A stretch of DNA of 64,000 nt from an uncultured Bacteroidota bacterium. Its GTDB lineage: Bacteria > Bacteroidota > Bacteroidia > Bacteroidales > 4484-276. Positions 11,848 to 64,000 of the stretch are shown piece after piece. The stretch spans positions 39,446-103,445 of the forward strand of contig CALFEP010000082.1 of the NCBI GenBank assembly GCA_937950125.1. The letters run 5' to 3'. How positions within the stretch are numbered: the stretch's first letter is position 1; the number at the start of each line of letters is the position of its first letter. Under the pieces are notes generated by a model. The model saw only the letters and a program-made list of their open reading frames with translations. It searched no databases and had not been told where the DNA came from. A program made the position numbers and the translations under genes.

Positions 11848-12894
11848 TCAAATGATGAATTTATTGATTTTATTCACAATTAGTACCGGTTTTTCAAAAT
11901 TATAATCAGTGTCAGCCATTTGAAGTCCCGTGGCAACAAGCCCTACAGCAAATACCCGTTCGATGGCATGCGCCATTGTGCCATCGTTTTGACCTTGTTC
12001 CTGTTCAAAATCAGCCTCCGACAAGTGAAGACCAAGCACCGGCAAGAGCGCTTCCTTCCTGGCATAAAACATGGAGCCTGCTACAAAATTGAGGTCTGCG
12101 AGTTGCTGATTTGTAACACCCATTTTGTTGGCCATCGTATGAACACGAAGCCCATTTGCCGCGTAATACAAATACATTGGCATAATATTGCCCGAAGGAC
12201 CAATTATGCCGACCGAAGAATTCGACCTGAAGATTTCCATCATACGGTCAACACAACCACTGCCAGTCAGTTTCGCAAAAAGGTCGTTTCGCCAGTGATC
12301 ACGGCGGTTAAGATGATTCGATCGTTTAGTGTGTAATTTTAAAACAATGGTGTACCCGTCGGCAAAAACTACGGGCAATATTTTTAAAAATGGAAGGATG
12401 TCACGACCATGATTTTTTACAGGAAAATATTTTACTGGTAATGGCTTCCCTGCAATTTCAGCCTTAATCTGGCTAAGCACTTGCTCAGGACCAGTGAGAT
12501 AAAGCGAAAGTTTTGTTTTTTCAACCTTCAGTAGTGTCTGGTAAATCTCAAAAAAGATGTCAGCATAAAATGCATGAACTATCACGGCAAGCCTGTTTAT
12601 TACAACCTTTTTGCTTCCGGTTTCGTTTACAGTTTTTATCCTGTAGGAATATTTATCAAATAACCTTCTTTTCCAAAAAGCAAATTGGTAAATTTTCAAT
12701 CGTGTGTTACGGTAAACAGTTGCATTTCTCCAGTTTTGATAAATCTCCCAATGATTGAAAAGCTTTGGAAAATAAGAAAATAAAAAATTTTTAAGGGTTT
12801 CCTTAAAAGGCCTTTGGAAAGGAAAATATTTCCAGATTATGCTGAAATCGTGTTGTTTGAAGCTTTTGTCCCGTTTATTTTTTCTGTCAGTCAT
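11848..12894 (-). CDS. Rhamnan-synthesis protein F (RgpF)-family glycosyltransferase
   Basis: 'LAVIVHAFYADIFFEI', 'GRDILPFLKILP', 'VLKLHTKRS' and 'WRNDLFAKLTG' follow the RgpF pattern, and the same blocks recur in the 1265-aa protein. The track start (13029) is a TTG preceding an implausible N-terminus, so the ATG at 12894 is preferred. Confidence 0.7.
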   Translation of the reverse strand: MTDRKNKRDKSFKQHDFSIIWKYFPFQRPFKETLKNFLFSYFPKLFNHWEIYQNWRNATVYRNTRLKIYQFAFWKRRLFDKYSYRIKTVNETGSKKVVINRLAVIVHAFYADIFFEIYQTLLKVEKTKLSLYLTGPEQVLSQIKAEIAGKPLPVKYFPVKNHGRDILPFLKILPVVFADGYTIVLKLHTKRSNHLNRRDHWRNDLFAKLTGSGCVDRMMEIFRSNSSVGIIGPSGNIMPMYLYYAANGLRVHTMANKMGVTNQQLADLNFVAGSMFYARKEALLPVLGLHLSEADFEQEQGQNDGTMAHAIERVFAVGLVATGLQMADTDYNFEKPVLIVNKINKFII

Positions 12895-13439
12895 AAACCA
12901 CCTATTGGCCAATAACGGCAATACATTACAAAGGTTGGTACAAAAAACGAAATCAGTATGGTAAAAATTGAAATGCCAGAATTTAAATTTCCAAATATTG
13001 TAATTGCCTGATTGTAAACCAATAACCAAAACAATGATTTGGGTAACTGATTAAAATATCCGGCGCCAGGATTGATCCTGATGATGAGAACGGTTTTCAG
13101 GTTGGCAAAAGAAAAGCTTTTTCCTGTTTCACGAAACCCACTGTCGAACGGTACAAGCAGGGATTCGCTACCCTTCTCAAACTAATCGCCAATGTGATTG
13201 TCGTTAAAGCGTTCGAAAAAATTATTTTTGGGATTGTGCTATGCTTTAAAAGAAGGCGATGATTTATCAGGTACCTGATCAGGAGGCGTCAAACCCTGCA
13301 ATGATCATCCCCACAAAAATGGCAGCTATCAGCAAAAAGTTGTGGGCTAAATGTGGAGCCATTTTGTCGTCGGTCGGTTGAACCATTCGCAGAAAAAATG
13401 GGCATTTTGACTTATCGCCTGAATAATAAAAGCATGGTC

Positions 13440-14603
13440 TCAGCGGATAAGATTGCGTACTTTCCTGAAAGGAATTATTGGTATTTTATCCCTTAAATTC
13501 ATCATTGGCAATTCCCAATATTTAAATAAAAGCACTGATCCCAGAATGGTTGTAGCCCAATATAAAAAGTACACAATCAACGACTTAATTTCATCTCCCG
13601 GAATGGTTAAGTGGTCCTTTATCAGTGGGATAAGAAGCAGCAAAATGAGCGAATGATGGATCAGGTACATCGAATAGGAAACCCTGCTTGTATTCGTCAG
13701 AATCCGATAGACCCATCCTTTCCCGATCTTAATTGAATAAAAGAAAGGCAAGAGGAACATGACCGCTGATGAAAACACTGAAAACGAGAAAACAGTTATG
13801 TAAAAGAATATTCCCGGAGTTACAGTTCTGATCAGCATAAAAGACAATTTGTAACCAATACTGAGAATTAATCCGGCAATCAGAAAATGAATCCGGTATC
13901 TGATAAATATTTCTGAATAATAATGACACAACCAGGCTGCTACAATACCATACATCAGGCTATCGAGCCTTGTAACGACCTGCTTTCGTATGCTATCATC
14001 CAATTGTGTAAAATTTGTAACAATCTCACGGGCGTCACGGTAGAATCTTACACCGGTCGAAAATAAAATGATTATAACAGCCACGATTAAAAACGAATTT
14101 TTTACACCGAATCCCAATCTGTTAATGACGAAAAGCAAGATGGGTGTGGTAAGATAAAACCATTCCTCCACCGACAAACTCCAGGCTTCCATAAAATAAT
14201 AGGGATGGTCCCATGCAAAATTCTGAAAGAAAAAAAAGAATTCCGTTTCACGTTCATAATCAACTCCCAAAACAAAATGAAAGATGCCCAGCAGCATGAA
14301 AAGAATGAGAAAATAATTTGGCAGCGTTCTGAACCATCTTCTCATCCAAAACTGCGCAAGGGTTTTTGTCGTAGCACCTTGCTGTTCAAAGTTTCTGATT
14401 AGTATCTGCCCAATCAAAAATCCACTCAACACAAAAAAAATAGTGACCCCATCCAAAATAAGGTGCGACATCCACGACACATCAAAATGTTGCTCCAATA
14501 GTCGTTTTCCATGCCCAAAAACCACAACAAGAATTGCAACAGCCCGAAGAATATCCAATCCATAAACCCTTTTACCTGCATCCGGCAATTTAAGAATCTG
14601 CAT
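13440..14603 (-). CDS. Acyltransferase family 3 (OafA/YrhL-like) membrane O-acyltransferase
   Basis: 387 aa with about 10 TM helices. N-terminal 'VYGLDILRAVAILVVVFGHG' is typical of acyltransferase-3 enzymes. Confidence 0.85.
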   Translation of the reverse strand: MQILKLPDAGKRVYGLDILRAVAILVVVFGHGKRLLEQHFDVSWMSHLILDGVTIFFVLSGFLIGQILIRNFEQQGATTKTLAQFWMRRWFRTLPNYFLILFMLLGIFHFVLGVDYERETEFFFFFQNFAWDHPYYFMEAWSLSVEEWFYLTTPILLFVINRLGFGVKNSFLIVAVIIILFSTGVRFYRDAREIVTNFTQLDDSIRKQVVTRLDSLMYGIVAAWLCHYYSEIFIRYRIHFLIAGLILSIGYKLSFMLIRTVTPGIFFYITVFSFSVFSSAVMFLLPFFYSIKIGKGWVYRILTNTSRVSYSMYLIHHSLILLLLIPLIKDHLTIPGDEIKSLIVYFLYWATTILGSVLLFKYWELPMMNLRDKIPIIPFRKVRNLIR

Positions 14604-14624
14604 AAACCATTCTATATTAATCGA

Positions 14625-16580
14625 TTATAACACTTTTTCACATCTTGGCGGCCAGGCCAGGCTGAAATCTTCTTTTTCGAGTGTAAGATTGGGCGAGTAA
14701 GCAGGATCAAGGGTAAGATGATTTCCCCATTTTTCAATCATAAAAAACACCTCTTTCTGAAACCGTTCCAACCTGTCACCAACCAGGTCATCGCCCCTCG
14801 ATACGCTTTCATGATGGTAAAGCTCGGCATAAGGTGTCCAGACTATTCTATGTCCATTTTTTCTGACTTTCAGGCAAAAATCAACGTCGTTAAAAGCTAT
14901 TGAAAGATTTACTTCATCAAAACCGGCCGCTTCGATAAAAACACATTTCCTAACCACCATGCAGGCAGCGGTAACCGCAGATAATTCATGTATCAGGCTT
15001 ACCCTTCCGAAATACCCTCTTTCGGCGCGGCGAAGATATTTATGTGAATGACCAGCTACGCCGCCAATTCCAAGAATAACACCCCCATGTTGAAGAGTTT
15101 CGTCAGGGTAATACAGCTTTGCGCCCACAATTCCGACCCCTTCCTGATTACATTGGCTCATCATCTCTGTCAGCCAGTCGGGTGTAATCACCTCTGTATC
15201 ATCGTTCAAAAAGCAAAGAAATTCACCTCGTGCAACCCTGGCAGCGCGGTTGTTGATTGCAGAAAAATTAAACGGTGCGGGGTCATCAATGACCTGGAAA
15301 TTCTTTATTTCTCTGATCTCATTCAAATAATCCAAGGTTTCCGGCTCATCAGAATTATTGTTGATTACGAGAATTTCAAAATTGGGATAAGTAGTTTTGC
15401 TCTGTATGCTGTGAATGCATTTTTTCAGTAACCTGTGGTTGTTTCGCGATGGTACGATTATGCTGACCATTGGAATACTGGAAGGAAGCCTGTATTTTAC
15501 GCGAAAGTAAAACGATGGCAGGGTGATGAGTTCTGCATCTTTGTTTGTCCTTTGCAGGTGTTCAAATATTGCCCTGTATCCCGCATCGAGGCTGTAAGGT
15601 TTGACATCAGGGATTTTTGAAGTACTCAGCTTATGAATCCTCCAATGGTACAATACTTTTGGAATGTGAATGATTTGATGGCTTTTTACCCGTTCGATAA
15701 AACGTAAAGCCAGATCATAATCCTGCGAGCCCTCAAAACCTTGACGGAAACCGCCTATTGCCCTGACTATATCGGTGCGGTAAACCCCCAGGTGGCTAAT
15801 CATATTCTGAGATAAAAAGAGGCTGTAATTCCAGTCGCATTTAAAATACGGATCGGTAAAATTGCCCTTGTTGTCCAATTTATCTTCATCAGAATAAATA
15901 AGGGCTGCTTCTGGATGTTGGTTTATAGCACTAACTATACGAAAAAGTGCATCCCTCGTAAGCAGGTCGTCATGATCCAAAAAAGCCAGAAAAACACCAG
16001 AAGCCAATGAAATTGCACTGTTTGATGATTGAGAAATATGGCCATTCTCAGTTCTGAACACCACTTTTATCCTCGAATCCAATGCCTGGATTTTTTTTAA
16101 GTATGAAATGGTTTCAACCTGTGTTGAAGCATCATCGGCTATGCATAACTCCCAAAACGGATAAACCTGATTGCGTAACGATTCGACAGCTTCACTCAGC
16201 CATTGTGGATTGCTGTTATATGTGGGCATGATTACACTAACAAGCGGCTTGTATTTGAAAGATTTCTGTAATTCCTTCATCCTCACAAGATCTTGCTCCG
16301 ATAATTTTCCAAAAAAATCCAACCACTTCTGGTACGTTTCCTTATCATCTCCTAATTCAGAAGAAAATGTGTTTGGCCTTAGCCGATATAGGGCTTTGCG
16401 TAACGCCTTTTTTATTCCCCTCGGCAGCAACACCCTGATTATCCGTACAATGACGCCGGCAAATGAGTTATTCTTCAGCATAATATTTTCAAATTGTGAG
16501 TTGTTCTTTACAATATTCTTATCCCAAATTCCTGCCTTTAAATCATACAAATTTTCAGCTGAAAATTTTGCTACCCTCAA
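14625..16580 (-). CDS. Tandem GT2 (two GT-A domains) glycosyltransferase
   Basis: Two GT2 signatures: 'VSVIMPTYNSNPQWLSEAVESLRNQVYPFWELCIADDAS...FLDHDD' and 'VSIIVPSRNNHRLLKKCIHSIQSKTTYPNFEILVINNNS...FLNDDTE'. The track start is a TTG; an ATG at 16481 is an alternative. Confidence 0.85.
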   Translation of the reverse strand: MRVAKFSAENLYDLKAGIWDKNIVKNNSQFENIMLKNNSFAGVIVRIIRVLLPRGIKKALRKALYRLRPNTFSSELGDDKETYQKWLDFFGKLSEQDLVRMKELQKSFKYKPLVSVIMPTYNSNPQWLSEAVESLRNQVYPFWELCIADDASTQVETISYLKKIQALDSRIKVVFRTENGHISQSSNSAISLASGVFLAFLDHDDLLTRDALFRIVSAINQHPEAALIYSDEDKLDNKGNFTDPYFKCDWNYSLFLSQNMISHLGVYRTDIVRAIGGFRQGFEGSQDYDLALRFIERVKSHQIIHIPKVLYHWRIHKLSTSKIPDVKPYSLDAGYRAIFEHLQRTNKDAELITLPSFYFRVKYRLPSSIPMVSIIVPSRNNHRLLKKCIHSIQSKTTYPNFEILVINNNSDEPETLDYLNEIREIKNFQVIDDPAPFNFSAINNRAARVARGEFLCFLNDDTEVITPDWLTEMMSQCNQEGVGIVGAKLYYPDETLQHGGVILGIGGVAGHSHKYLRRAERGYFGRVSLIHELSAVTAACMVVRKCVFIEAAGFDEVNLSIAFNDVDFCLKVRKNGHRIVWTPYAELYHHESVSRGDDLVGDRLERFQKEVFFMIEKWGNHLTLDPAYSPNLTLEKEDFSLAWPPRCEKVL

Positions 16581-16586
16581 TGGATT

Positions 16587-17978
16587 TTATTTGCTGCTTT
16601 CCTTAAAAAATGAAAGCTTATTCCTTTCAAGGTAGTCGAGCTTGTTTACAATGGCATTACTATCGGGGTAAATTTTAAAATTTGCCAATTTATCGCACCC
16701 CCCAATACAATGATTTTCAAGGTAGCAATTAACCCAGTTTCGTTTGCCTTCGCTGTACCAGTTGATTCCATTCGAAAAAAATACATTAGCCTCCTTGATA
16801 ATGAGCAGAAAAAGAACCCCGTAAAGGATGGTAATATGTAGCCATTTTCTTGTTTTGACGAGTTTACCAAAAAGCAAAATCATGAAATACATGGCCAGTA
16901 TTCCCGGAATTGCATAGGACACATACCTGGATGAAAACGCTGCCTCGAGTCCAAGACACAAGCGACCTACCGAAGTAAAGACAATAAAAAGCAAGGTAAA
17001 AGAACCAAGATAAAAAATTACAAGGGATTTAACCTCCTGATTTTTAATGATCAGAAAAGAAGAAAATGCTATTGATGCCAATAGGATTAAGAACAAACCG
17101 ACAGCGTACAGCTTAAATAATTGGAGTAAAAATGGAAAATTCAATGGAATAAAAGCGCCCCAGGCTGAACCAAACTGAAAAACAGAGAACCAAACATATT
17201 CAAGAGGATGTTCAAGAGGAAACTGAAAACAATCAGTTGCTGGAGCGTGTTGATAATGAAAGAAAAATGAACCGAAGGAGGCCATTGAAAGGATCAAAGC
17301 TCCAATGTTGAACCATTTGTTTTTGACGGTTTTGCTCCTCCACGAAAAAATGAAGAGTATAATAATTACAGGTATTGCAGCGAAAAGCGCAAAACCAGTG
17401 TAGGTAGATAAAAAAACCAGTACAACCAGGCTCATGGCTCTTAAAGCCTGATTATTAAGTGTGAGCACCCAGGCACTTAAAGTAATCAGGAACAATGGAA
17501 CAGGACCATGCGCAAGGTTGGAAGTACCAATAAATGCTTCGAATTGTAACAATGTAAAGAATGCCAGCGGAATAGCTATATCGCTCCAGTGAAGCAAGCC
17601 GAATAGTTTTCGTTTTATCAGCATAGCCAGGACACACGAAACTGCCACAAAACCAGCAGCAATAAACGCTTCAACCCTGACATTCCAATCCGTAAGCGGA
17701 TAAACAACCGCCTGAATTAACCCACCCAACCCTTGTCGGGGAGGACCATGCTGCCAGCTAAATAATTGCCAAAGCGTAGTTTGACCCTTAAATAATTGGG
17801 TTAAAAAATCCCACTGATCCCAAAAAATGACGTTTACAGCGTAACGATCAACAAACCAAATCAACCTGAAAAACAATGCAAGAAAAACAACTGTCAGTGT
17901 CAACAAATGCAATGATTGATTGGCTTCCCGTAATTGGAACATTTCAAAATTTTTCGTTTTTCTTGTCAACTTTATCAA
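16587..17978 (-). CDS. Polytopic membrane protein, paralog A of an unassigned family (possible GT-C-like enzyme)
   Basis: Shares 'Y(A/S)VN..F.D.WDF', 'Q.GP.R', 'GRL.LG.E...SSRY' and a C-terminal 'LDYL..(N/H).L' tail with 42718..44094, and more weakly with 27218..28507. The track start is a TTG; an ATG at 17942 is an alternative. Confidence 0.8.
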   Translation of the reverse strand: MIKLTRKTKNFEMFQLREANQSLHLLTLTVVFLALFFRLIWFVDRYAVNVIFWDQWDFLTQLFKGQTTLWQLFSWQHGPPRQGLGGLIQAVVYPLTDWNVRVEAFIAAGFVAVSCVLAMLIKRKLFGLLHWSDIAIPLAFFTLLQFEAFIGTSNLAHGPVPLFLITLSAWVLTLNNQALRAMSLVVLVFLSTYTGFALFAAIPVIIILFIFSWRSKTVKNKWFNIGALILSMASFGSFFFHYQHAPATDCFQFPLEHPLEYVWFSVFQFGSAWGAFIPLNFPFLLQLFKLYAVGLFLILLASIAFSSFLIIKNQEVKSLVIFYLGSFTLLFIVFTSVGRLCLGLEAAFSSRYVSYAIPGILAMYFMILLFGKLVKTRKWLHITILYGVLFLLIIKEANVFFSNGINWYSEGKRNWVNCYLENHCIGGCDKLANFKIYPDSNAIVNKLDYLERNKLSFFKESSK

Positions 17979-18012
17979 TTATTATTGCTAAACAATAGCA
18001 AAACAGCAGATA

Positions 18013-19200
18013 CTATTGGGGTCTTGTCTTTTGTTCCAACTTTAAAGTTTCATAGTTATCGTTGATCAACCTTTCCAACACCTCAAATATTACAATATCT
18101 GGTTTCTCAATCCTGATAAGGTTTGTATCAGGATTAGGCTGCCTGATAATTACCGTTTCACCAAAACTTTCTTTAACCAGTATTGCAAGATGCACAAAAT
18201 ATGAATCTGCGAATACCAATATTTTCTTTGATTCGGCGGCATTTTGAAATCTGGTCTCCCAATTGTTAAAAAATTCAGGCGGGCTGGTATCGGGAATTTT
18301 CAACTGCTTATCAATGAGTTGGGCATGTTCATTTGCCGGTAATACCAGAAATTCATAACTATTTGATTCCCGGTTTAACAGCTTTGCCAAATCCATGTTT
18401 TTAAGAATGTAAAAGCGATTTTCGATCTCATAAGGATTTAACTTTTTTACCCGCCAAAAATTAGTATTTATGGTATCCATCAACTGATTGTAAACCAACC
18501 ATGCTCCAATACTGTTCCAATGGGTATCTTCTTTGCGGTAAAGTTGCATTTGATTTCCTGATGCCAGCGATTTTCGCACATCAATTGTTTTTATCCCCTT
18601 TTCCGCTGCTTTTTTTAGGATCAACTCAAGTGTAGTTGGCTGACTTGATTTTTTCAGAGGAACAAACTCATGGTAAAAAGATGTTTTTTCCTGAATGGGC
18701 AAAAAAATAAAAAAACAACCATTTTCCTTGCACCAACCATCCAAATTACTGAGGATTTGTGCAAAATCCTCGATTTCTTCATTCTTCATTCGTTCATATC
18801 CAAGTTGTTCGGACAACCCCCGGTTGAAGTCATCACCTGCAAACAACCAACCATTGCTGCCTGTAATCACCTTATCAGGAAATGGATCGACGCAAAAAAT
18901 ATTTGTCTTAACCGCTTGAAACAATTGCAGAAACTTTGTTTTCATTGGGAAATGACTGCTAAACCATGGAGCAAAATTGTTGACAAAATAAACCGCATCC
19001 AGGTAAGTACCTTTTATTTTACCTTTCAGACCTCTGCCATTGTGAATATGAAAATGATACTCTGGAGGAAGATCAAGTACCTGTTTTGTTTTCAAGGTTT
19101 CAGGAATTGCATCCTTTAAAACCTGCAAGGTAATAGGCAGAAAAATAACCCCAGCAAACAGCATTGTAAACGCCCAGCTATGTAGGTTATTGATTTTCAT
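18013..19200 (-). CDS. AlgX/AlgJ-like (SGNH-type) polysaccharide O-acetylation protein
   Basis: N-terminal signal anchor. 'EDTHWNSIGAW' matches the D-x-H-W catalytic block of AlgJ/AlgX. The stop of the upstream MBOAT gene shares one base with its ATG (TAATG at 19200). Confidence 0.65.
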   Translation of the reverse strand: MKINNLHSWAFTMLFAGVIFLPITLQVLKDAIPETLKTKQVLDLPPEYHFHIHNGRGLKGKIKGTYLDAVYFVNNFAPWFSSHFPMKTKFLQLFQAVKTNIFCVDPFPDKVITGSNGWLFAGDDFNRGLSEQLGYERMKNEEIEDFAQILSNLDGWCKENGCFFIFLPIQEKTSFYHEFVPLKKSSQPTTLELILKKAAEKGIKTIDVRKSLASGNQMQLYRKEDTHWNSIGAWLVYNQLMDTINTNFWRVKKLNPYEIENRFYILKNMDLAKLLNRESNSYEFLVLPANEHAQLIDKQLKIPDTSPPEFFNNWETRFQNAAESKKILVFADSYFVHLAILVKESFGETVIIRQPNPDTNLIRIEKPDIVIFEVLERLINDNYETLKLEQKTRPQ

Positions 19201-20642
19201 TAAAATCTGAAATAAATGAATGGATTATATGAACCCGCTGCAATGTAGGAAACGGATACAATGAACAGTACTATAAGAAATGAATATTTTAACAAAAGAA
19301 AACCATTTTCGAGTAAGGAAGCGGGTTTCAAAAAAGTATGCAACTTTTTTGCAACAAAGGGATATGCCGGCATGGCAAAAACAATTGCAACAATTAGTAA
19401 CATAACGGTCTCGGTGTTGAAAATAAAAAAACTGAGATAATTCACCCTATCCACATTGCCATCATCAAACGAAAACATCTGAGAATAATACGCTAAAGCG
19501 TATTTCAAATCAGGTGACCTGAATAAAACAAAGGTGGTTATCCACACAAAAAGCAGGTAAAAATGTTGAACAGGCGTCCAACTTTTCTCTAACATACGCA
19601 TAAATCCTAACCTTTCGATCATGATAAAAAAACCGTGAGACAAACCCCACAGCAGGAAATTCCAGGAAGCCCCATGCCAAAGCCCGGTGGCAACAAAAAC
19701 AATGATAAGATTTAAATAAATCCTTGATGTTTTCGCAACCCTGTTTCCTCCCAAAGAAATGTAGAGGTAATCTTTGAACCAGGTTGAAAGTGTCATATGC
19801 CAACGTTTCCAAACTTCCTTTACCGATTTTGCAATGTAGGGATAGTTAAAATTTTCAGGAAAATCAAAACCGAGCATCCACCCCATACCAATGGCCATGT
19901 CCGAATAGCCTGAAAAATCGTAATACAACTGGATGACATAGGCCAACATTCCAAACCATAAGATTGCTGACGACAAATCGGAGGGTGTATGAGAAAACAC
20001 CTGGTCGGCAACCGTCGCAAACGTGTTTGCAATAATCATTTTTTTTGCCAGACCAATGATAAACCTTTCTATCCCCAATGCAAATTTATTAATACTAATA
20101 TCCCGGTTTCTTAATTGATTATGAATGTCAGCATATCGGACTATTGGCCCGGCAATTAATTGTGGAAACATGGTCACAAATGTGGCATAATCAACAAAAT
20201 TCCTGTTTGCTTTAATCTTTCCTCTATAAATATCGATGGTGTACGACAGGGTTTGAAACGTGTAAAAACTTATCCCGATTGGCAAGGCTATGTGTGGCAC
20301 ATTTTGGAACGCAGTATTTGAAATACCTGTTAAATCAAGCAATTCTCTGAAATTTTCAAATGCAAAATTGAAATATTTGAAAAAACCGAGAAGCGACAGA
20401 TTAACAACAAGCGATAATGCAAGCCCTATCTTTCGGTAACCACTTTCGATCGCCTGGGCACAATAATAGTCAGCTATTGTTGAAGTTAGAAGCACCAGTA
20501 CAATCCATTTTTCGCCCCAGCTATAAAATACCAGACTTGCCATCACCATAAAAAGGTTTTTAAGCTTTAAGGGCAAAATCAGGTAGAGTGCAAGAACAAT
20601 AGGCAGAAAAAGGAAAATAAAAATCAGGCTGCTGAATAGCAA
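19200..20642 (-). CDS. MBOAT-family membrane O-acyltransferase (AlgI/DltB-like)
   Basis: 480 aa. 'LFSSLIFIFLFLPIVLALYLILP' and the 'WHMTLSTWFKDYLYISLGGNR' His block are typical of MBOAT enzymes. The only available start is a TTG, because an in-frame TAA lies two codons upstream. Confidence 0.9.
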   Translation of the reverse strand: MLFSSLIFIFLFLPIVLALYLILPLKLKNLFMVMASLVFYSWGEKWIVLVLLTSTIADYYCAQAIESGYRKIGLALSLVVNLSLLGFFKYFNFAFENFRELLDLTGISNTAFQNVPHIALPIGISFYTFQTLSYTIDIYRGKIKANRNFVDYATFVTMFPQLIAGPIVRYADIHNQLRNRDISINKFALGIERFIIGLAKKMIIANTFATVADQVFSHTPSDLSSAILWFGMLAYVIQLYYDFSGYSDMAIGMGWMLGFDFPENFNYPYIAKSVKEVWKRWHMTLSTWFKDYLYISLGGNRVAKTSRIYLNLIIVFVATGLWHGASWNFLLWGLSHGFFIMIERLGFMRMLEKSWTPVQHFYLLFVWITTFVLFRSPDLKYALAYYSQMFSFDDGNVDRVNYLSFFIFNTETVMLLIVAIVFAMPAYPFVAKKLHTFLKPASLLENGFLLLKYSFLIVLFIVSVSYIAAGSYNPFIYFRF

Positions 20643-23025: not shown

Positions 23026-23084
23026 GGAAAATTTACAATTATGAGCTGAGCTATAAAAACCAGTTTTTCGCCAGAAAACCTGTC

Positions 23085-23112
23085 TGCCTTCCTGCCTTTG
23101 GCAGGCCGGCAG
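23085..23112 (-). terminator. GC-rich stem-loop directly after the 1265-aa gene (weak terminator or attenuator candidate)
   Basis: CTGCC-tt-CCTGCC ttt GGCAGG-cc-GGCAG gives an 11 bp interrupted stem. It begins 12 nt after the stop at 23125. On the transcript it is followed by 'acaggUUUUC'. Confidence 0.3.
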
Positions 23113-23124
23113 GAATCTCAAATT

Positions 23125-37243: not shown

Positions 37244-37292
37244 TTTTTTGTTAGTGATGGGAGTCGTGGGAAACGGGCAATTCAATTACACT

Positions 37293-49251: not shown

Positions 49252-49289
49252 GCACAAGATTTTATGCTTGACATTAAAATATTATAGAT

Positions 49290-53025: not shown

Positions 53026-53030
53026 AACTG

Positions 53031-54630: not shown

Positions 54631-54688
54631 CAATTAAGTTACTGCGAGCTAAATTTGGAGGAAGGTTGCCGATGGAATATTTTGTCCG

Positions 54689-54991
54689 TCAATTTTGTTT
54701 GGAATTTTTACATGAGCACAGTCTAAAGCCTAATTTTTCGCCACTAAATCCTGCAAATCGGGTAAGCCGGTCAAGGTTTTGTTCAATCTGGTCGGAACAG
54801 ATTATCGGCAGCTTTTTTTCTGGATTACCTTCAATCACGGTTTTGTTGTGATAATACCAATATTTCAGGTAACCATCCAGGGTGTAAAGGTTGTTGTCCT
54901 TCATTATCTTTTCTTCGGGCGAGTGTGTGTATAAATCAGGACGATACCTGTAATCCCTGAGTTTTGTCCTGTATTTCGGAAGAAAATCTTT
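54689..54991 (-). pseudogene. Possible truncated C-terminal remnant of a further sulfotransferase-like gene
   Basis: The open frame 'KDFLPKYRTKLRDYRYRPDLYTHSPEEKIMKDNNLYTLDGYLKYWYYHNKTVIEGNPEKKLPIICSDQIEQNLDRLTRFAGF' lacks any PAPS-loop N-terminus and has no convincing start. It loosely resembles sulfotransferase C-terminal halves. Confidence 0.25.
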
Positions 54992-55009
54992 TCATTTATG
55001 TTTTAGAGC

Positions 55010-57805: not shown

Positions 57806-57810
57806 TGGAT

Positions 57811-58710
57811 TCAGTTACCCTGATTTAAGACATTTCTGTTTTGATACTCAAGCCTGTGCGCCTGCAGCCAACTCCAAAAGCTCATTTTCCATTGGCTGCC
57901 CAGGAAAAGGTTAAACTCATGGTCGCTGGTTGGCCGGTTATCCTGCCCGCCGTTGGGGTAAATGGTTATTTCCGACAGGTAAAATTGCTGTCGGTCGGCA
58001 AAAAAATCAATCCTCAAAAAGTCAAAATCCCTTCCTAACCTTCCTGCAGCTTCAATCATTTCAGGGAGGAATGGAGGTTTTTCAGGAATTGTAGCTGGTT
58101 CTTTTTCAAAATTGTTTTTCAGATTGAATTTATTCCAGTGCGCATCAAAATACACATTTTCATTGTTTTTGCGCATCGATGATGAGCCAATGCTGATGGC
58201 TGCCACCCTCCCCCTGAAAGTAAAAAGCCTGTAATCCAATATTTCTTTCCCAGGCTCAGGTTCAATGAGTTTTTCCACAAAAACTGCCGGCGGGATATTA
58301 TTGTAAGCCCATTCGATGGGGCGGTATCTGGTTTGCAACCATAAGTGGCAGATGTCGATAACCTCGTTGGGCTTGAGTTTTTTCAGCGCCTTGTTTTCAA
58401 ATTCATAAAAACCGCTGCTGGCAACACAATTTTCGCCATTAAAAAAGTCATAAAACTGCATCCCATATTTCAGGATATTCCAGTTGCAGCCATGGTTGGC
58501 TTTGATGAAACATTTTTCGGGCAAATCGCCGAAAGGAATGGTTTCGGGGTTTTGAGTTACAAAAATCACCTCTGCCGATTTTACTCCCTTTTCTGCAGCA
58601 TATTTCTTAACAGCCAGTTTATCCTGCATCATTGTAAACAGCGGATTGTGGTCGTTTTTCATGCGCCAGCGGATTTTGGCGGCCAGAGTGAGTTTGTTGA
58701 ACAATGCCAT
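57811..58710 (-). CDS. TupA-like ATP-grasp amidoligase
   Basis: 'LAAKIRWRMKNDHNPLFTMMQDKLAVKKYAAEKGVKSAEVIFVT' and the overall 299-aa layout match the TupA-like ATP-grasp family, from memory. Confidence 0.65.
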   Translation of the reverse strand: MALFNKLTLAAKIRWRMKNDHNPLFTMMQDKLAVKKYAAEKGVKSAEVIFVTQNPETIPFGDLPEKCFIKANHGCNWNILKYGMQFYDFFNGENCVASSGFYEFENKALKKLKPNEVIDICHLWLQTRYRPIEWAYNNIPPAVFVEKLIEPEPGKEILDYRLFTFRGRVAAISIGSSSMRKNNENVYFDAHWNKFNLKNNFEKEPATIPEKPPFLPEMIEAAGRLGRDFDFLRIDFFADRQQFYLSEITIYPNGGQDNRPTSDHEFNLFLGSQWKMSFWSWLQAHRLEYQNRNVLNQGN

Positions 58711-58716
58711 TACAAT

Positions 58717-59367
58717 TTATGGGGGACTAAATTTAAATAGTTCATAATCAGTTGCAACTTCCAACAAATCGACATTTGGCCTGATATTAAACACAGCCAA
58801 AGTATCTGCTTTTTCAATTTCGGAAAGATATTTCAGCACTTCATGATAGCGTGGCCGGTTGTAAAAATCGTGGAATAGAATTTTTAAACCGGAATTTTTG
58901 TGGCAATGCAAAATTGTTTGTAAAACACTTGCAACCCTGAAACGGCCATCGATCAGCACACAATCAACTTTGGAAACATCAATTTTTTTGAAAATACCCG
59001 AAGAATAGTCGGGGAAAGAAAGCTTATGTTGTGTGTCAACAGGATAGCCCCATTCTTTGGTATTGCCAATATTTGCATAATAAATTGAAAGCCGTTTCAG
59101 TAAATGGAACCGGATAAACCAGTATTTTTTTAGTTTTCTGATCCATTCGAAATCCGATTCAACACTGTAAACCTTTGCTTTTGTGTTAGATAAGGCCAAA
59201 AATGTACTTCCACCCATTCCAAATTCCAGGTAGTAACCGGACTTTTTGATGTGCCTGACAAAAAGTTCACTTTCAACAGGCTTCATGAGCGCTTTTACAT
59301 CAGGTTTGTATGAAAATCTAACAGGTAAATGCATAACTTTTACATCAGTAAAAAAATGGTTCTGCAA
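58717..59367 (-). CDS. Putative SAM-dependent methyltransferase (small Rossmann-fold, DUF579/TylF-like)
   Basis: 'YYLEFGMGGSTFLALSNTKAKVYSVESDFEWI' and 'VDCVLIDGRFRVASVL'. The track start is a TTG; an ATG at 59334 is an alternative. Confidence 0.55.
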   Translation of the reverse strand: MQNHFFTDVKVMHLPVRFSYKPDVKALMKPVESELFVRHIKKSGYYLEFGMGGSTFLALSNTKAKVYSVESDFEWIRKLKKYWFIRFHLLKRLSIYYANIGNTKEWGYPVDTQHKLSFPDYSSGIFKKIDVSKVDCVLIDGRFRVASVLQTILHCHKNSGLKILFHDFYNRPRYHEVLKYLSEIEKADTLAVFNIRPNVDLLEVATDYELFKFSPP

Positions 59368-59525
59368 ATGGGGTAATCGTATTTCAGCATCGATAGGATG
59401 CTAATACTGGCCTTCTGACCCATCACAAAAACCAATTTGGAAATCCTCATGAAGCTCTTTATTTCCGTGGTTAGTATTTTGAACCTGATGAAAATGTTTA
59501 AATGTCCTGCTGGTCAGGATAACTT

Positions 59526-59720
59526 TTAGATAATAGTCCTGATTTGGGGAAGTGGACTGGTCAGATAACATGAATTAGAATCCATGATCTTTCTTATCAT
59601 TTCATTTGCATGGTTGAATTGATTCGCAATAGCCCGGGTTTGAATTCCGATTTCATGTGTTGACTTCTCAAGTTCAGCGATTTTTTGATTTTCGGTGACG
59701 CATTTCCTATTTTCCAGCAT
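59526..59720 (-). pseudogene. Remnant of a coiled-coil 'S.SW.IT.PLR'-type C-terminal tail
   Basis: 'ENQKIAELEKSTHEIGIQTRAIANQF...IMDSNSCYLTSPLPQIR' resembles the tails of the 931-aa protein (LSRSWKITKPLRKL) and of the first module of the 997-aa protein. No catalytic domain is attached. Confidence 0.3.
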
Positions 59721-59907
59721 GATTCGTTGATCATAACCGGCAAGAAAAAAATGAAGTTGCCATACTTTTCATCATCCGGCAGGTTTCGCCACAAGTAGTA
59801 AAGGATTTATCTGAAAGTCACAGATTCCTCACAAACCGCATGTACACCAGATGAATTGGAAATATGATAAATACCCGTGATTTCATCATGATGACAGAAT
59901 GTTGTTT

Positions 59908-60144
59908 TCATCGCTGTCGTATGAGAAAATCCCAATCTTCAAAGACATCGGACTGCTCGTCAAACCGGCATTTCAGCCTGATTAATTCACTCTGAAACAG
60001 CAATGCATGAATTGGAATAAATTTTTCAACCAACATTCTTTCAAAGATGAACCCTTCATTGTATAATTTTTTCAGATCACCGCTCAGGTTCAACGCTTTA
60101 ATCGCAAGATAGGCCACAAATGCGACGTGGTTTGGCGGGCTTGC
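59908..60144 (-). pseudogene. Remnant of the C-terminal part of a GT2 glycosyltransferase
   Basis: '...IHALLFQSELIRLKCRFDEQSDVFEDWDFLIRQR' looks like the GT2 '...FDE...(E/D)D.D(F/L)..R' block. The frame is closed by TAG just upstream, and there is no DxD or N-terminal half. Confidence 0.35.
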
Positions 60145-60531
60145 CTACCAAACCAACCCTTCATCCAGGTGATTCTTCGGTTAATCCGATGGTGTCCTGA
60201 AAGTGAAGCGCTTCGGGGCGACTGAATAATTACCTGGTATTTGAAATACAGTTGTTTACAAAAACTTGTCGATGGTATCGAAGTGAGGAATCAACCCAAA
60301 AACTGTCGTTGGCTCAAGGAATTTTGCGAATGAATCAGGTTCAAATTATTCCAGTGGGCTGGTTAACCATTTCATCCTGAAATAATGCTTATGTTGCTTT
60401 ACCCCTTCTAAAACAACATAAGAAAATGATTTTCTACTTCCCGCCCGGCAGTTCGACCTTGGGCAAAGTTAATTTATGGCTGGGGTTGTTTTTGTTGGCC
60501 TGAATGATCAGTCATAGGCTGGACATTTGTT

Positions 60532-63500
60532 TTAGGATTGAACCATCGAAAACAATTCGATTCGGTGGATAAAAAAGCGCAATGGGTCTTCAGGCAGAAA
60601 TTTCAGTATTGCAGAGCGGGCTTCTAAGCCCATCTTTTCCCACTCTTCTCTTCTTTGCCAGGCTCTTTCCAGCGCTTCATCAAGCGCCTCAACGCCTGGC
60701 TTTGCGGCAATAAAACCCGAAACATTATCGCTGATGACTTCGGTATGCGAGCCTATGTCGGTGGCTATGGAAACCCTGGCACAAAGCATGGCCGACATCA
60801 ATACTATGGGCAGCCCTTCCATATACGATGGTAAAAATATGGCGTGGTTTTGCGCCCACACCTCCGTCAAATCATTGGCAAATCCGCAAAAAGTAACATT
60901 GGTGAGATATCGGTCGTAAACCTGCCTTTTAAGTTCATCCTCGTCCTGACCTTTGCCATAAATATTGAGGTGAACTGGCCGTACCCTCCATTTTTGTTTT
61001 GCAAAGAGTTCGATGGCTAATTGTTGCCCTTTGTGAATATTATGCAAATTGCCAACAATGGCAATTTGAAGTTTTTCGCCTGATTTTGGGTACGGAATGT
61101 TAATATTGCGTTCAGTGCCGGTTGGGTTGTAAAATATTCCTGAATTTGTGATTGGATGTCCAAGCCTTTTTTCCATCACCCTAAGGTTATTTTTTCCCGT
61201 AAAAAGAACGATTTCAGCTCCTTCCTGTCCTTTGATGAGTTTCGGCACAAGCTGTTCGTTCACTGGCCAATACATGGGTTCTTTGGTAAGTTGGTTAACA
61301 ATAACATAAGGAATTTTTGAAGCACTGCATTGCTGATACCATTCGGTACCTTCGTCCTGATCGCCGATTGAAATTATCATCAGGCTTGGGTTGAATTCTA
61401 CGATTTGGCTGAATTCGAAATAATTTTTAAACAATACTAAAATGCCGGCTTTCCTCAAATCATCAATAAAATCAGGCTCGGGTTCCCACTTTTTAATCAC
61501 CACAATTACTTCATCGCCCCTTTCCTTTGTTTCGAGTGCTGCCTGAATCCAAAGTTTTTCGCTTCCACCCATCGAAGCCCCGTCGTTAGTAGTCAGAAAC
61601 ACCCATCGCTTCTGCTTTGCCTCCGCTTTGGCAGTCAGTTCTTTAATCTTATTATTGATGACATCATAAGGATAGTATTTGTTAAATTCATCCTCTTTCA
61701 TTGTAGGGTAAAAAGCTCCTATTTGCTCATGGATGTGAAATTTCCATTTTTCAGCAAATTGCGGGTTTAGCTCATACAGATCCAGAACCCTTGCGTGAAT
61801 TTTAGCTGCTTCCTGTAGAAGGGTAAGCTTTTTTTGTTCATCACTGTTGAACTGCGTGGTGAGGGTTTGGCGGTGGCGTCGGTGAAAGTTGAGTTTTTCA
61901 TGGCAATAGGCTATTTGCCGGCCTTTTAATAATTCGATATAAAAAAGCCAGTCGCCGGAAAATTTGAACGCCTCAAGTTTAATGAAGATGTCGGGCGGTA
62001 TGGCTTCTTTTCTAAAAATCACGCTGCTTACATTCAGGATGGAATTTTTGACACCCAACCCAAAGTTTATTTCCTGCGTGCTTTTCACCCTGTAATTGTA
62101 TTTCCAGTGGTTAAAATCGAGTTTTCGATGATAATCGGTGTAGTCGCCGGTAATGTTATCGTTTTCATCAATAATATTGGAGTTGCAGTGCGCCAAAGCC
62201 ACCTCGGGATGATTGAAAAACGGCAACATCAGTGCAAGAAAATCAGGAGCAGAAAAATCGTCGCTTTCGGCAATCCATATTATTTCACCTTTAGCCGCCG
62301 TAATTCCCTTTTGCCATTGCCGAAATGGCGAACCACTGTTAACCTTGTTTAAAACAACCGATGTATTTGGTTTCGACCTGTATTTTTCGATGATTGCCAA
62401 ACTATCATCTGTGGAAGCATCATCCAAAATAATCACTTCAAATTCTTTGAATGTCTGGTTGTAAATTGATGATAACCTTTCATCGAGAAACGGTGCATAA
62501 TTATAATTTGGCACAATTACCGAAACTACAGGATGAAAATTGCCTACCCGCAGGCATTTGGTCAAAATTTTGGGCGCCGAAATATCCATGGTATAGCCCG
62601 ACAGAAATTTTTCCCTGGCTTTTGCACCAAGTCCGATTCTATGGTGCAGATGGGTTTTAAGAAATACCATTTTTTCAGCCGCAACATTCACATCTTCAAA
62701 GGGTACCACGAAGCCTGCATCATTTGCAACAAAATCGGGCATTCCGCCCGAATTTTCAAAACAAATTATTGGAATGCTGCATTGTGCCGCTTCGAGGCAA
62801 ACAAGCGGGAAAGGATCTTCTCTTGACGACAGAAAGAAAATATCGCCGGAAAGAAAATATTCATAAAAATTCTCCCGCGTACTGAGAAAAGTAATATGAT
62901 TTTTAACCTGTTGGACGACAATTTTTTGCTCCAGTTCGTCCCAGGTGCAGATATTATGAATACTCCGATCAACCTCCCAATAATTATCACCAATCCAGAT
63001 AAAGTGAAAATCGGTCATTCCTTTTTGCTTTAAAACTATGGCAGTTTCAATAAAAAGGTCAACCCCTTTTCGCCAGGTGATGCTTCCGGCGCCAAAAACC
63101 AGCATGCCATCTTGTGGCAGTCCAAGTTTTTTGCGAAGCTCATTTTTGGAACTATTAAAATTCAAATCTCTTATTTCGATAAAATCGGGCACCATTTCTA
63201 TTTTGCCAGGCGCAATCCCATGATTCTTTATCAAATTTTCGGCAACTTGATTTGAAGCAACCATAAATAGCGCCGTGAAATGCCGCATATTTTTAATTGC
63301 AGCGGTCGATTCATACAGCCTGATGGTATTTTCGAGTTCGTGAACATGCGTAATCACAGGGACATTCAGGTAACTCAATTCATCGTAAATGAAGGAAGAA
63401 ACCATGGTATTTCCATAAACCAGGTCAATTTTGCCAACAAATTCGCGAATTGTAGCTGAAAAATTTTCCTTTGTTGGAGAATATTTTTTACACTCATCCC

Positions 63501-64000
63501 AAACCAGGGTGGGAGCAATAGCATGGTAGCTTTCAACAAGCTCTCCACCTGTTAAAAGAAGTATTTTAAAATCAATTCCTGTATTTTTGTAAAACCACTT
63601 TACTAAACTCAACAGTAGCATTTGGCCACCGCCAATTCCGGCATCGTGCCCAATAAACAAAATAGAGATTGACCCTCTGAATTTTAATATTTCCGCATGA
63701 CTCAGCTCATCGTATTGATTATATTTTTTTGCTTTCCATCGCTCCTTCAAAACTTCCACAGATACAATGCTACTTATCCGCCTGTTTTCAGTTTTGCCGT
63801 AAAGCAAATAATGCAACAACGGGTTCATCTTGCTTTCTTTCACATCGGGGTACTGCTCGAGATAAAAAGCTGAATCGAATTTATCGCAGGGTTTGCGTCC
63901 TTCGAAACCACCAAATAGCAAGTAGTGGAAGGCAGGATTTATTCCTGAGGCATTTACATCGGGGTTGTTTTGCCGGTAATAGGTTTCATCAAACAAACCA
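60532..64000 (-). CDS. Multi-domain glycosyltransferase of more than 1154 aa (5' end outside window): 'NPDV/NPL.HY' repeats + GT4 + GT2 + second GT4
   Basis: The frame is open to the window edge, and the track start is only a TTG. GT4 block 'REDPFPLVCLEAAQCSIPIICFENSGGMPDFV'. GT2 block 'VSVIVPNYNYAPFLDERLSSIYNQTFKEFEVIILDDASTDDS'. C-terminal GT-B block 'LPSYMEGLPIVLMSAMLCARVSIATDIGSHTEVI'. Confidence 0.9.
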   Translation of the reverse strand, partial: GLFDETYYRQNNPDVNASGINPAFHYLLFGGFEGRKPCDKFDSAFYLEQYPDVKESKMNPLLHYLLYGKTENRRISSIVSVEVLKERWKAKKYNQYDELSHAEILKFRGSISILFIGHDAGIGGGQMLLLSLVKWFYKNTGIDFKILLLTGGELVESYHAIAPTLVWDECKKYSPTKENFSATIREFVGKIDLVYGNTMVSSFIYDELSYLNVPVITHVHELENTIRLYESTAAIKNMRHFTALFMVASNQVAENLIKNHGIAPGKIEMVPDFIEIRDLNFNSSKNELRKKLGLPQDGMLVFGAGSITWRKGVDLFIETAIVLKQKGMTDFHFIWIGDNYWEVDRSIHNICTWDELEQKIVVQQVKNHITFLSTRENFYEYFLSGDIFFLSSREDPFPLVCLEAAQCSIPIICFENSGGMPDFVANDAGFVVPFEDVNVAAEKMVFLKTHLHHRIGLGAKAREKFLSGYTMDISAPKILTKCLRVGNFHPVVSVIVPNYNYAPFLDERLSSIYNQTFKEFEVIILDDASTDDSLAIIEKYRSKPNTSVVLNKVNSGSPFRQWQKGITAAKGEIIWIAESDDFSAPDFLALMLPFFNHPEVALAHCNSNIIDENDNITGDYTDYHRKLDFNHWKYNYRVKSTQEINFGLGVKNSILNVSSVIFRKEAIPPDIFIKLEAFKFSGDWLFYIELLKGRQIAYCHEKLNFHRRHRQTLTTQFNSDEQKKLTLLQEAAKIHARVLDLYELNPQFAEKWKFHIHEQIGAFYPTMKEDEFNKYYPYDVINNKIKELTAKAEAKQKRWVFLTTNDGASMGGSEKLWIQAALETKERGDEVIVVIKKWEPEPDFIDDLRKAGILVLFKNYFEFSQIVEFNPSLMIISIGDQDEGTEWYQQCSASKIPYVIVNQLTKEPMYWPVNEQLVPKLIKGQEGAEIVLFTGKNNLRVMEKRLGHPITNSGIFYNPTGTERNINIPYPKSGEKLQIAIVGNLHNIHKGQQLAIELFAKQKWRVRPVHLNIYGKGQDEDELKRQVYDRYLTNVTFCGFANDLTEVWAQNHAIFLPSYMEGLPIVLMSAMLCARVSIATDIGSHTEVISDNVSGFIAAKPGVEALDEALERAWQRREEWEKMGLEARSAILKFLPEDPLRFFIHRIELFSMVQS
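63772..64000 (-). repeat. At least two N-terminal 'NPDV/NPL.HY' protein repeats (array may continue beyond the window)
   Basis: 'FDETYYRQNNPDVNASGINPAFHYLLFGGFEGRKP' and 'FDSAFYLEQYPDVKESKMNPLLHYLLYGKTENR'. Confidence 0.8.

Follow-up and report, generated by a model that had tools for sequence, protein, structure and literature searches.

A very large, module-rich Wzm/Wzt-dependent polysaccharide locus predicted in an uncultured Bacteroidales bacterium

Polysaccharides exported by ATP-binding cassette (ABC) transporters follow an established logic of polymerisation by multi-module glycosyltransferases (GTs) in the cytoplasm, export that involves the carbohydrate-binding module (CBM) of Wzt, and side-chain addition by GT-C enzymes outside the cytoplasm (PMC11231755, PMC11127046, PMC9746298). 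The closest described systems are the capped ABC O-polysaccharide systems in which Wzt carries a CBM and the terminators are coiled-coil proteins, namely Escherichia coli O9a with WbdA/WbdD, Klebsiella O3, O4, O7 and O12, Raoultella WbbB and A. aeolicus WzmWzt (PMC11231755, PMC3482155, PMC9445017), the streptococcal and lactococcal rgp, gac and cwps loci (PMC9746298, PMC10821137, PMC9574508), the three-component systems GtrA/GtrB/Gtr*, Klebsiella gmlABC and Citrobacter GT136 (PMC11127046), and the O-acetylation systems AlgI/AlgJ/AlgX and PatA/PatB. Here we describe a glycan locus that begins at position 11848 of a 64,000-nt stretch (the window) of contig CALFEP010000082.1, from an uncultured Bacteroidales bacterium (assembly GCA_937950125.1, positions 39,446 to 103,445), and runs past the window edge.

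We found that the locus is a real cluster of at least 57.5 kb that builds, exports and decorates a surface polysaccharide, following a known pathway and notable for its size and complexity. Judging from protein domains and fold models, we give a probability of about three in four to the reading that it is one co-oriented, Wzm/Wzt-dependent heteropolysaccharide locus with a capped chain, decorated in both the cytoplasm and the periplasm. A first-pass annotation had proposed that more than 52 kb form an ABC-transporter-dependent glycan locus, in which eight proteins carry about 16 GT-A, GT-B or RgpF domains. Its type, its GT fusions and its density of decoration enzymes are upheld, Pfam profiles bear out the GT assignments with exactly 16 modules in eight proteins, and the extent was understated. 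The exporter and the cytoplasmic GTs are listed here, with identities to two related loci, L131 on a metagenome contig and L200 in a Lentimicrobiaceae metagenome-assembled genome (MAG); in the text, genes are named by their lower coordinate.

40514-41335, minus strand: Wzm, ABC-2 permease (Pfam ABC2_membrane PF01061; 65-66% identity to the L131 and L200 Wzm)
41351-42667, minus strand: Wzt, ATPase with a C-terminal carbohydrate-binding domain (Pfam ABC_tran PF00005 and Wzt_C PF14524)
11848-13029, minus strand: RgpF-like GT, one RgpF module, the last (3') gene (Pfam RgpF, E 6.8e-33; 53% identity to the last L200 gene)
14625-16580, minus strand: two-module GT2-GT2 protein (Pfam Glycos_transf_2 in two stretches; 58% identity to its L200 counterpart)
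23125-26922, minus strand: repeat-RgpF-GT4-GT2 protein of 1265 aa (Pfam RgpF, Glycos_transf_1, Glycos_transf_2)
30665-34198, minus strand: FemAB/GNAT-GT2-GT2 protein of 1177 aa with a weak C-terminal methyltransferase-like domain (Pfam; 51-67% identity to its L200 counterpart)
34250-37285, minus strand: GT2-GT2-GT4 protein (Pfam; 48% identity to its L200 counterpart)
47845-49257, minus strand: methyltransferase fused to one polyprenyl-phosphate GT2 module, GtrB/DPMS/ArnC-like (Pfam)
50667-52376, minus strand: one GT2 module with a coiled-coil and two C-terminal NPDV-type repeats (Pfam, repeats)
60532-64000 (open reading frame 60532-63996), minus strand: 3' two-thirds of a 1770-aa protein cut by the edge, here two GT4 modules and one GT2 (Pfam)

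Wzm and Wzt had been recognised before, and both are confirmed by Pfam; the Wzt_C domain (aa 284-407) scores 55.1 bits against a cutoff of 30.4, and the best match of Wzt in the Protein Data Bank (PDB) is the full-length, CBM-bearing Wzt of the A. aeolicus WzmWzt O-antigen transporter (8dku, E 1e-74). The two genes are separated by 15 nt and form the one Wzm/Wzt pair in at least 57 kb. Among the open reading frames (ORFs) of the window, no Polysacc_synt, Wzy_C, O-ag_pol or EpsG match was found, with unknown proteins scanned to E<=1 and the 10-transmembrane protein at 28497-29474 left unassigned, and the Kps-type families Capsule_synth, Poly_export and Wzz gave no Pfam match either. The earlier observation that Wzx, Wzy, Wza/Wzc, nucleotide-sugar and 3'-phosphoadenosine-5'-phosphosulfate (PAPS) synthesis genes are not seen thus agrees with zero Pfam matches in the window, where no rml genes or RgpA/B equivalents were identified.

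The ORF end at the window edge is a truncation; the full protein has 1770 aa and, in the 99.9%-identical public contig L122, is laid out as PIG-L, GT2, coiled-coil, repeats, GT4, GT2, GT4. It shares 39% identity over 690 aa with the product of g23125. Three large GTs of the locus have in common a unit of roughly 38 aa repeated in tandem, 'FDxxFYlxxNPDVxxxGxNPxxHYLxxGxxEGRxP', found in the N-terminal part of g23125 (aa ~60-300), in g50667 (aa ~445-566) and in 60532-63996 (aa 1-77). This repeat is without a Pfam family, often follows a coiled-coil, occurs also in the loci L126, L127, L130 and L131 and in homologs of these GTs from other phyla, and may be a docking or assembly module. As candidates for a chain terminator we observe five methyltransferase domains and coiled-coils in three proteins, the latter from a crude predictor and by eye. 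The GT2 domain of g47845 has as its best PDB matches DPMS (5mlz, 7.5e-14), ArnC and the GtrB protein sll0501.

The first-pass annotation had been read as finding no Wzy-like or other membrane enzymes, which does not hold, as five polytopic GT-C-like proteins are present in the window, four of them without a Pfam family. They are listed together with a further membrane protein.

16587-17978, minus strand: GT-C-like polytopic protein, paralog of g42718 (no Pfam or NCBIfam match)
20704-23121, minus strand: ArnT/PMT-like GT-C candidate of 773 aa in public gene calls, its N-terminal domain a periplasmic beta-sandwich (no Pfam match)
27218-28507, minus strand: GT-C-like polytopic protein, distant member of the g42718 superfamily (no Pfam match)
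42718-44094, minus strand: GT-C-like polytopic glycosyltransferase by AlphaFold2 model and Foldseek (no Pfam or NCBIfam match)
45830-47848, minus strand: DUF2142 polytopic protein, GT-C-type candidate (Pfam DUF2142, E 1.3e-59; 13 predicted transmembrane helices)
28497-29474, minus strand: 10-transmembrane membrane protein (no Pfam, NCBIfam or PDB match)

We assign g42718 and g20704 to the GT-C class by predicted fold, g16587 and g27218 by homology, and g45830 by its DUF2142 family, an assignment that is to be read as a prediction. For g42718, the AlphaFold2 model has a pLDDT of 88 and its top nine Foldseek matches in the PDB are all GT-C enzymes (AftA, PglB, ArnT, DPY19, STT3, PimE and ALG9 among them; probability 0.87-1.0). 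A conserved acidic motif, SVNxxFxDxWDF, directly follows its first transmembrane helix, and its relatives occur in Acidobacteriota, Desulfobacterota, Verrucomicrobiota, Chloroflexota and Bacteroidota. The model of g20704 (pLDDT 79) matches ArnT (5ezm, E 3.3e-4, probability 1.0), Pmt4 and Pmt1/2, and the protein carries an invariant HDD motif and has a homolog in L131. Conserved Asp residues include D44 in g42718 and D249/D250 in g20704. The product of g16587 is 26% identical to that of g42718 over 427 aa and 50% identical to the product of the L200 gene next to wzm. The g27218 family comprises 2266 representative clusters at E<=1e-3 and aligns with the g42718 family in hhalign (probability 99%, E 5e-18); most of its members have an extra C-terminal domain of about 140 aa, missing in g27218 itself. 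DUF2142 proteins are found in streptococcal rgp loci (PMC9746298), and here the DUF2142 gene is overlapped by g47845 through ATGA, indicating translational coupling.

The 10-transmembrane protein g28497 belongs to a rare family with the invariant motif GEExSWGQH...NxQxExNxHNFxN and is a candidate transporter or flippase; this family is unrelated to the GT-C-like ones. PDB sequence searches with g29478, the g28497 family and the g27218 family gave no match, and NCBIfam gave none for the ten locus proteins searched, of which seven lack a Pfam family.

Decoration enzymes, together with two proteins of no recognised family, make up most of the remaining genes.

13440-14603, minus strand: Acyl_transf_3 membrane O-acyltransferase (Pfam PF01757, E 1e-24; ~8 predicted transmembrane helices)
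18013-19200, minus strand: periplasmic AlgX-like SGNH O-acetyltransferase partner (Pfam ALGX, E 1.7e-15; N-terminal transmembrane helix)
19200-20642, minus strand: MBOAT membrane O-acyltransferase (Pfam MBOAT, E 1e-28; 449 aa by public gene calls)
44337-45089 and 45083-45829, minus strand: two S-adenosylmethionine-dependent methyltransferases (Pfam Methyltransf_11/23/25)
52357-53025, 53031-53783 and 53851-54633, minus strand: three sulfotransferases (Pfam Sulfotransfer_2 in two, Sulfotransfer_1 in one)
55010-57805, minus strand: multi-domain decoration enzyme (Pfam TylF O-methyltransferase and pyruvyl transferase; weak sulfotransferase-like N-terminus)
57811-58710, minus strand: TupA-like ATP-grasp enzyme (Pfam ATPgrasp_TupA, E 7e-23)
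29478-30578, minus strand: soluble protein of 366 aa, gene-called in 13 public contigs (no Pfam, NCBIfam or PDB match)
58717-59334, minus strand: 205-aa protein, gene-called in 9 public contigs (no Pfam or NCBIfam match)

For sulfation, pyruvylation, deacetylation and ATP-grasp ligation the prediction comes from domains only, and the ATP-grasp enzyme is predicted to ligate an amino acid or carboxylate to the glycan. The TylF, pyruvyl transferase, FemAB/GNAT, TupA-like ATP-grasp, MBOAT/AlgX and Acyl_transf_3 domains and the weak fourth sulfotransferase-like domain go beyond what the first-pass annotation had noted. The two Sulfotransfer_2 matches score 7.4e1 bits and 23.9 bits, the latter just over the cutoff, and Sulfotransfer_1 has an E-value of 1e-27. 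A crude prediction places a coiled-coil at the C-terminus of the 55010-57805 protein (aa 870-913). The methyltransferases g44337 and g45083 are candidate chain-capping enzymes, and a homolog of the former (41% identity) lies near Wzm/Wzt in a locus of a Victivallales MAG, L130. The MBOAT-AlgX pair is kept in L131, where the MBOAT is 59% identical to its counterpart here.

All supported genes from 11848 to the window edge lie on the minus strand, as had been reported; the Pfam-supported ORFs agree, and public gene calls made independently on sibling contigs of 99.9% identity give the same strand and starts. On the plus strand, the locus has 12 ORFs of 140 aa or more; a scan of ten of them gave no credible Pfam match. 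The single orientation is however not specific to the locus, as the minus-strand run starts at ~1334 and includes the housekeeping genes rplT/rpmI, infC, thrS and ffh as well as dcuC, and the GC skew is negative throughout the window, as expected for genes co-directional with replication. The six overlaps or abutments listed before are all exact to the base: TAATG at 19200, 11 nt between the ATG at 28507 and the stop at 28497, 7 nt at 45083-45089, abutting genes at 45829/45830, ATGA at 47845-47848, and 20 nt at 52357-52376. Spacers are indeed mostly below 100 nt (22 of 28 junctions with our ORF starts; with the starts of public gene calls, one to two more junctions exceed ~100 nt). Two of the gaps, 54634-55009 (376 nt) and 13030-13439 (410 nt), have a coding-like composition with no intact ORF and no significant homolog, and may be further gene remnants.

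A scan for sigma-70 promoters and terminators was rejected, its counts being no higher than in shuffled sequence and the sigma-70 model being unsuited to Bacteroidota. A replacement scan of the gaps for the Bacteroidetes -7 box TAnnTTTG, with a background of 0.5 per kb, returned three suggestive sites, among them one for dcuC in the 73-nt gap downstream of 11848-13029 and one at 42708-42701, before wzt, which is a candidate internal promoter. We place the 3' boundary at the RgpF gene (11848), since L200 also ends in RgpF followed by unrelated genes, dcuC has its own -7 box, and the core block downstream is free of glycan genes in ~50 MAGs.

At the other end, the locus extends at least 5.3 kb past the window edge, so that its size is a lower bound, and its 5' end lies further upstream. 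The sequence beyond the window was read from L122, found by looking up the 205-aa protein; exact-protein look-ups of 60532-63996 and 55010-57805 matched no record, and that of the ATP-grasp protein led only to a 3.5-kb contig. Upstream of the 1770-aa gene we observe a GT2, an Acetyltransf_9 protein, a second GT2 and a second DUF2142 protein. With this adjoining sequence, the totals are 19 GT-A/GT-B modules and six GT-C-like proteins.

The proposed pathway, for whose steps mechanistic precedents exist (PMC11231755, PMC3482155, PMC9445017, PMC11127046, PMC9746298), would run as follows. An initiating transferase whose gene lies outside the locus would start a polyprenyl-diphosphate-linked chain; a WecA/MraY-family fragment at 31-762 could fill this role, though it lies on the opposite strand and 11 kb away. 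The multi-module GT-A/GT-B/RgpF enzymes, whose domains are plain from Pfam, would polymerise the chain in the cytoplasm as a multi-protein complex, which the coiled-coils and 38-aa repeats may hold together. Methyl-, sulfo-, pyruvyl- and acyltransferases, the PIG-L deacetylase and the ATP-grasp ligase, again present as domains, would modify the chain, and its non-reducing end would be capped, most likely by methylation, as the Wzt_C domain suggests. The carbohydrate-binding domain of Wzt would recognise the cap, and Wzm/Wzt would export the chain. In the periplasm, the five GT-C-like enzymes of the window and a sixth beyond its edge, the second DUF2142 protein, are expected from fold and context to add side chains from polyprenyl-phosphate donors, although the chemistry of this step is conjectural; the polyprenyl-phosphate sugars would be made by the DPMS/ArnC/GtrB-like GT2 at 47845-49257. 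Finally, the MBOAT/AlgX-like pair and the Acyl_transf_3 protein would O-acylate the polymer, whose end acceptor may be lipid A-core, a different lipid or a protein.

Several observations weigh against this reading. The host is uncultured, and the case is read from sequence and predicted structures. An initiating transferase inside the locus, a WaaL-type ligase, and nucleotide-sugar and PAPS genes were not found in the window, nor was a terminator kinase or a GT99 or GT137 domain, so that the methyltransferases and coiled-coils are candidates only. No GtrA, MATE or SMR flippase matches were found by Pfam among the window ORFs, leaving 28497-29474 as the lone candidate. Both RgpF matches span only the C-terminal half of the Pfam model. 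The Foldseek matches to GT-C enzymes are modest (TM-scores 0.2-0.44, E-values 3e-4 to 0.1), and among 85 distant loci of the g42718 family, Wzm is found in 5 and any GT in 16. A general linkage of that family to Wzm/Wzt is thereby ruled out, and the role of g42718 here rests on fold and local context. Lastly, six inter-gene gaps exceed 240 nt, two decayed stretches and the gaps that follow 13029, 26922, 44094 and 54633 counted in, and since there is also a possible internal promoter, a single transcript is unproven.

Upon examining the related loci, we observe a mosaic. In L131 the order is GT2, Acetyltransf_9, PIG-L/GT2, ArnT-like GT-C, methyltransferase, GtrB-like GT2, methyltransferase, g42718-like GT-C (49% identity), MBOAT (59%), AlgX (37%), Wzt (46%), Wzm (66%) and DUF2142. 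In L200 it is a g34250-like gene (48%), a g30665-like gene (51-67%), a DNA methylase with an HNH endonuclease, Wzt (49%), Wzm (65%), a g16587-like GT-C (50%), one g14625-like gene with two GT2 modules (58%) and a g11848-like RgpF (53%). Orthologs of both types are interleaved along the whole 57 kb around the single Wzm/Wzt pair, which points to one integrated, rearranged and expanded locus, and the locus reads as an interleaved mosaic of modules from more compact relatives. PIG-L/GT2 is a separate 648-aa protein in L131 and the N-terminus of the 1770-aa protein here, so that domain fusions appear lineage-variable. In L130, large repeat-GT4-GT2-GT4 proteins, methyltransferase-GT2 fusions and Wzm/Wzt co-occur.

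The locus also holds one gene outside glycan synthesis and two decayed regions, none of them noted in the first-pass annotation, which we list with the flanking genes.

37293-40457, minus strand: Type IIG restriction-modification (R-M) enzyme of 1054 aa, not a glycan gene (Pfam HSDR_N+Eco57I+N6_Mtase+TaqI_C)
49258-50666, minus strand: decayed region, probable membrane-protein pseudogene (stops and frameshifts in all minus-strand frames)
59335-60531, minus strand: frameshifted GT2 pseudogene (multiple stops; blastx)
10374-11774, minus strand: dcuC-type C4-dicarboxylate carrier, with the conserved ffh block on one side and the glycan locus on the other
31-762, plus strand: WecA/MraY-family (Glycos_transf_4) polyprenyl-phosphate sugar-phosphate transferase, of which only the C-terminal part falls inside the window (Pfam)
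791-1345: response regulator, following the WecA/MraY-family fragment

The R-M gene, which PADLOC classes as REase_MTase_IIG (E 3.7e-236), is set between wzm and the g34250/g30665 GT pair with spacers of 56 nt and 7 nt. It is missing from L131, and in L200 (5917-7456) a different R-M system, an N6_N4 DNA methylase with an HNH/MTaX1 endonuclease, stands between the same GT pair and wzt. The transporter/GT junction may thus be a recurrent insertion hotspot for R-M genes, or may reflect a functional link between the glycan and phage defence. The pseudogene at 59335-60531 matches aa 362-472 of the 1770-aa protein, its N-terminal GT2, in two frames by blastx (E 6.5e-8). For 49258-50666, blastx against the protein set of this analysis gave no significant homolog; the region has hydrophobic fragments, including 'AHPDEH', and it is this fragment only that suggests a GT-C origin. 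Public metagenome contigs of 99.9% identity from several samples match the window, with both decayed regions in an identical state; the population is represented in samples ERZ724080-87 and SRR3330208-12.

The host is an uncultured member of Bacteroidales, with an Ffh at most 86% identical to that of any species-representative genome, and is probably Lentimicrobiaceae-related; the 1770-aa GT, its largest, is 73-81% identical to a Lentimicrobiaceae MAG protein. The leftmost 11.8 kb of the window are housekeeping in nature, with rplT/rpmI, infC, thrS, an OmpA/TPR/PD40 protein, a radical-SAM protein, folD, ffh and dcuC. The ffh-folD-OmpA/TPR block is conserved in ~50 Bacteroidales MAGs, which are family- or order-level relatives, and reaches thrS-infC in ~10 of them; none of these MAGs has glycan genes or dcuC upstream of ffh. 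When dcuC was tried as a synteny anchor, none of 35 related loci had the neighbours seen in the window. It thus lies outside any conserved block and, like the locus, looks like an insertion here that is specific to the lineage. Searches of the window for Rfam families and tRNAs gave no match.

The mosaic origin invites the alternative that two or more independent loci lie side by side, an L131-type locus, an L200-type locus and a sulfated-glycan cassette that make different polymers, one transporter pair having been lost. L131 and L200 each have their own Wzt-Wzm and different gene subsets, the array contains paralogs (two RgpF, two DUF2142, three g42718-like proteins, g23125 and the 1770-aa protein) and is broken by large gaps, the GT2 pseudogene, the decayed stretch and the R-M gene, and the candidate promoter before wzt would suit such an arrangement. 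We nevertheless consider it unlikely, as there is a single Wzm/Wzt pair, the two types of orthologs are interleaved and do not form two blocks, and tight overlaps cross module boundaries. Still less probable is that this is simply a conserved envelope locus from the core genome of the lineage, unremarkable in every way. The first-pass annotation had contrasted a GC content of 45-53% in thrS and ffh with 30-40% in the locus; the computed values are 43.1% for core genes (2083-10044) and 40.8% for 11848-64000, with a GC content at third codon positions of 46.0% and 43.0% (standard deviation 3.8), respectively. The locus genes g23125, g30665, g41351 and g44337 match the core in GC content, and there is overlap in the codon-usage distances. 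A low-GC or foreign island is ruled out by this small difference of about two points and by overlapping gene-level ranges and codon usage. Such composition would fit a core locus, as would the 99.9%-identical contigs from several samples and the module homologs in several phyla. The annotation had held that compositional likeness together with conservation would mark an ordinary core locus; the composition indeed barely differs, yet the locus is missing at this site in the ~50 Bacteroidales MAGs that share the ffh-thrS block. Its nearest relatives are far more compact and otherwise arranged, and a pseudogene, a decayed stretch and an inserted R-M gene are signs of turnover.

A further alternative concerns the product, which may be no lipopolysaccharide (LPS) O-antigen at all; a protein-linked glycan, of the S-layer type or from general O-glycosylation, or a lipid-anchored capsule-like glycan could be assembled by this ABC pathway as well. 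Geobacillus, with its methyl-capped rhamnan S-layer glycans, provides a precedent for a protein-linked glycan made in this way. The window has neither a WaaL/Wzy_C ligase nor LPS core genes, heavy anionic decoration with sulfate, pyruvate and ATP-grasp products is more typical of capsules and exopolysaccharides, and most of what is known of RgpF and DUF2142 comes from the wall polysaccharides of Gram-positive bacteria (PMC9746298). However, the window contains no oligosaccharyl:protein transferase and no Kps, OPX or PCP export components, and the absence of a ligase says little because ligases are commonly encoded elsewhere. We regard such a product as a possibility of some substance, though clearly the minority view. 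The reading as one capped-chain Wzm/Wzt-dependent heteropolysaccharide locus stays the preferred one.

A bolder proposal, which we advance tentatively and hold to be more doubtful than likely, is that one exporter, about 19 GT modules and five to six GT-Cs make a hyper-branched glycan that is sulfated, methylated, pyruvylated and acylated, that 16587, 27218 and 42718 found a widespread and as yet unclassified GT family of more than 2000 representative clusters, and that the junction is a recurrent landing site for R-M genes. If true, that landing site would tie surface-glycan diversification to DNA-level phage defence in one operon. The most novel elements are the GT-C-like superfamily with its three paralogs, the number of cytoplasmic and periplasmic GT modules per exporter and the recurrence of different R-M systems at the transporter/GT junction in two related loci; the superfamily, for which Pfam has no model, offers a starting point for the annotation of thousands of hypothetical proteins. 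If the predictions hold, few of the ABC-transporter-dependent glycan loci described so far would equal this one in size and module density; it comes from an anaerobic Bacteroidales lineage that has been little studied, and a polysaccharide with sulfate, methyl, pyruvyl and acyl groups would be of interest for glycan chemistry and phage-receptor diversity. The locus is also of interest as a source of new glycosyltransferases and sulfotransferases, although direct testing is hard because the organism is uncultured. The first-pass description of a locus well beyond textbook examples is apt for size and module number only and not for the logic of the pathway, which is already established and has compact relatives in other MAGs: the mechanism is not new, and the locus is a very large, module-rich example of a known pathway type.

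Comparison with the known systems makes this explicit. As in the ABC O-polysaccharide systems, there is a Wzm with a Wzt_C-bearing Wzt, no Wzx/Wzy match in the window, multi-module GTs, methyltransferases and coiled-coil-bearing proteins; unlike them, the locus is about 5-8 times larger, has 19 GT-A/GT-B modules against typically 2-6, carries 3-4 sulfotransferases, a pyruvyl transferase and an ATP-grasp enzyme, has no recognisable kinase-methyltransferase terminator, and belongs to a Bacteroidales host. With the rgp, gac and cwps loci it shares RgpF-family proteins, an ABC exporter, DUF2142/polytopic GT-C proteins, large multidomain GTs and extracytoplasmic side-chain addition as predicted here, whereas the Gram-negative host, the Wzt CBM, the far larger number of GT modules and the sulfation set it apart, and rmlABCD, a Wzx-like flippase and a Wzy-like polymerase are not in the window. 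Similar to the three-component systems, a polyprenyl-phosphate GT2 gene overlaps a GT-C-type gene, and the pair lies inside an ABC-dependent locus; in contrast to them, there is no recognisable GtrA, SMR or MATE flippase, the GT2 is fused to a methyltransferase, and five to six GT-C-like proteins are accompanied by only one or two candidate donor synthases. Finally, the adjacent MBOAT and AlgX-like genes with their 1-nt overlap resemble the AlgI/AlgJ/AlgX and PatA/PatB O-acetylation systems, while, unlike in alginate and peptidoglycan O-acetylation, no AlgF-like partner is seen and the pair is embedded in an ABC-dependent heteropolysaccharide locus.

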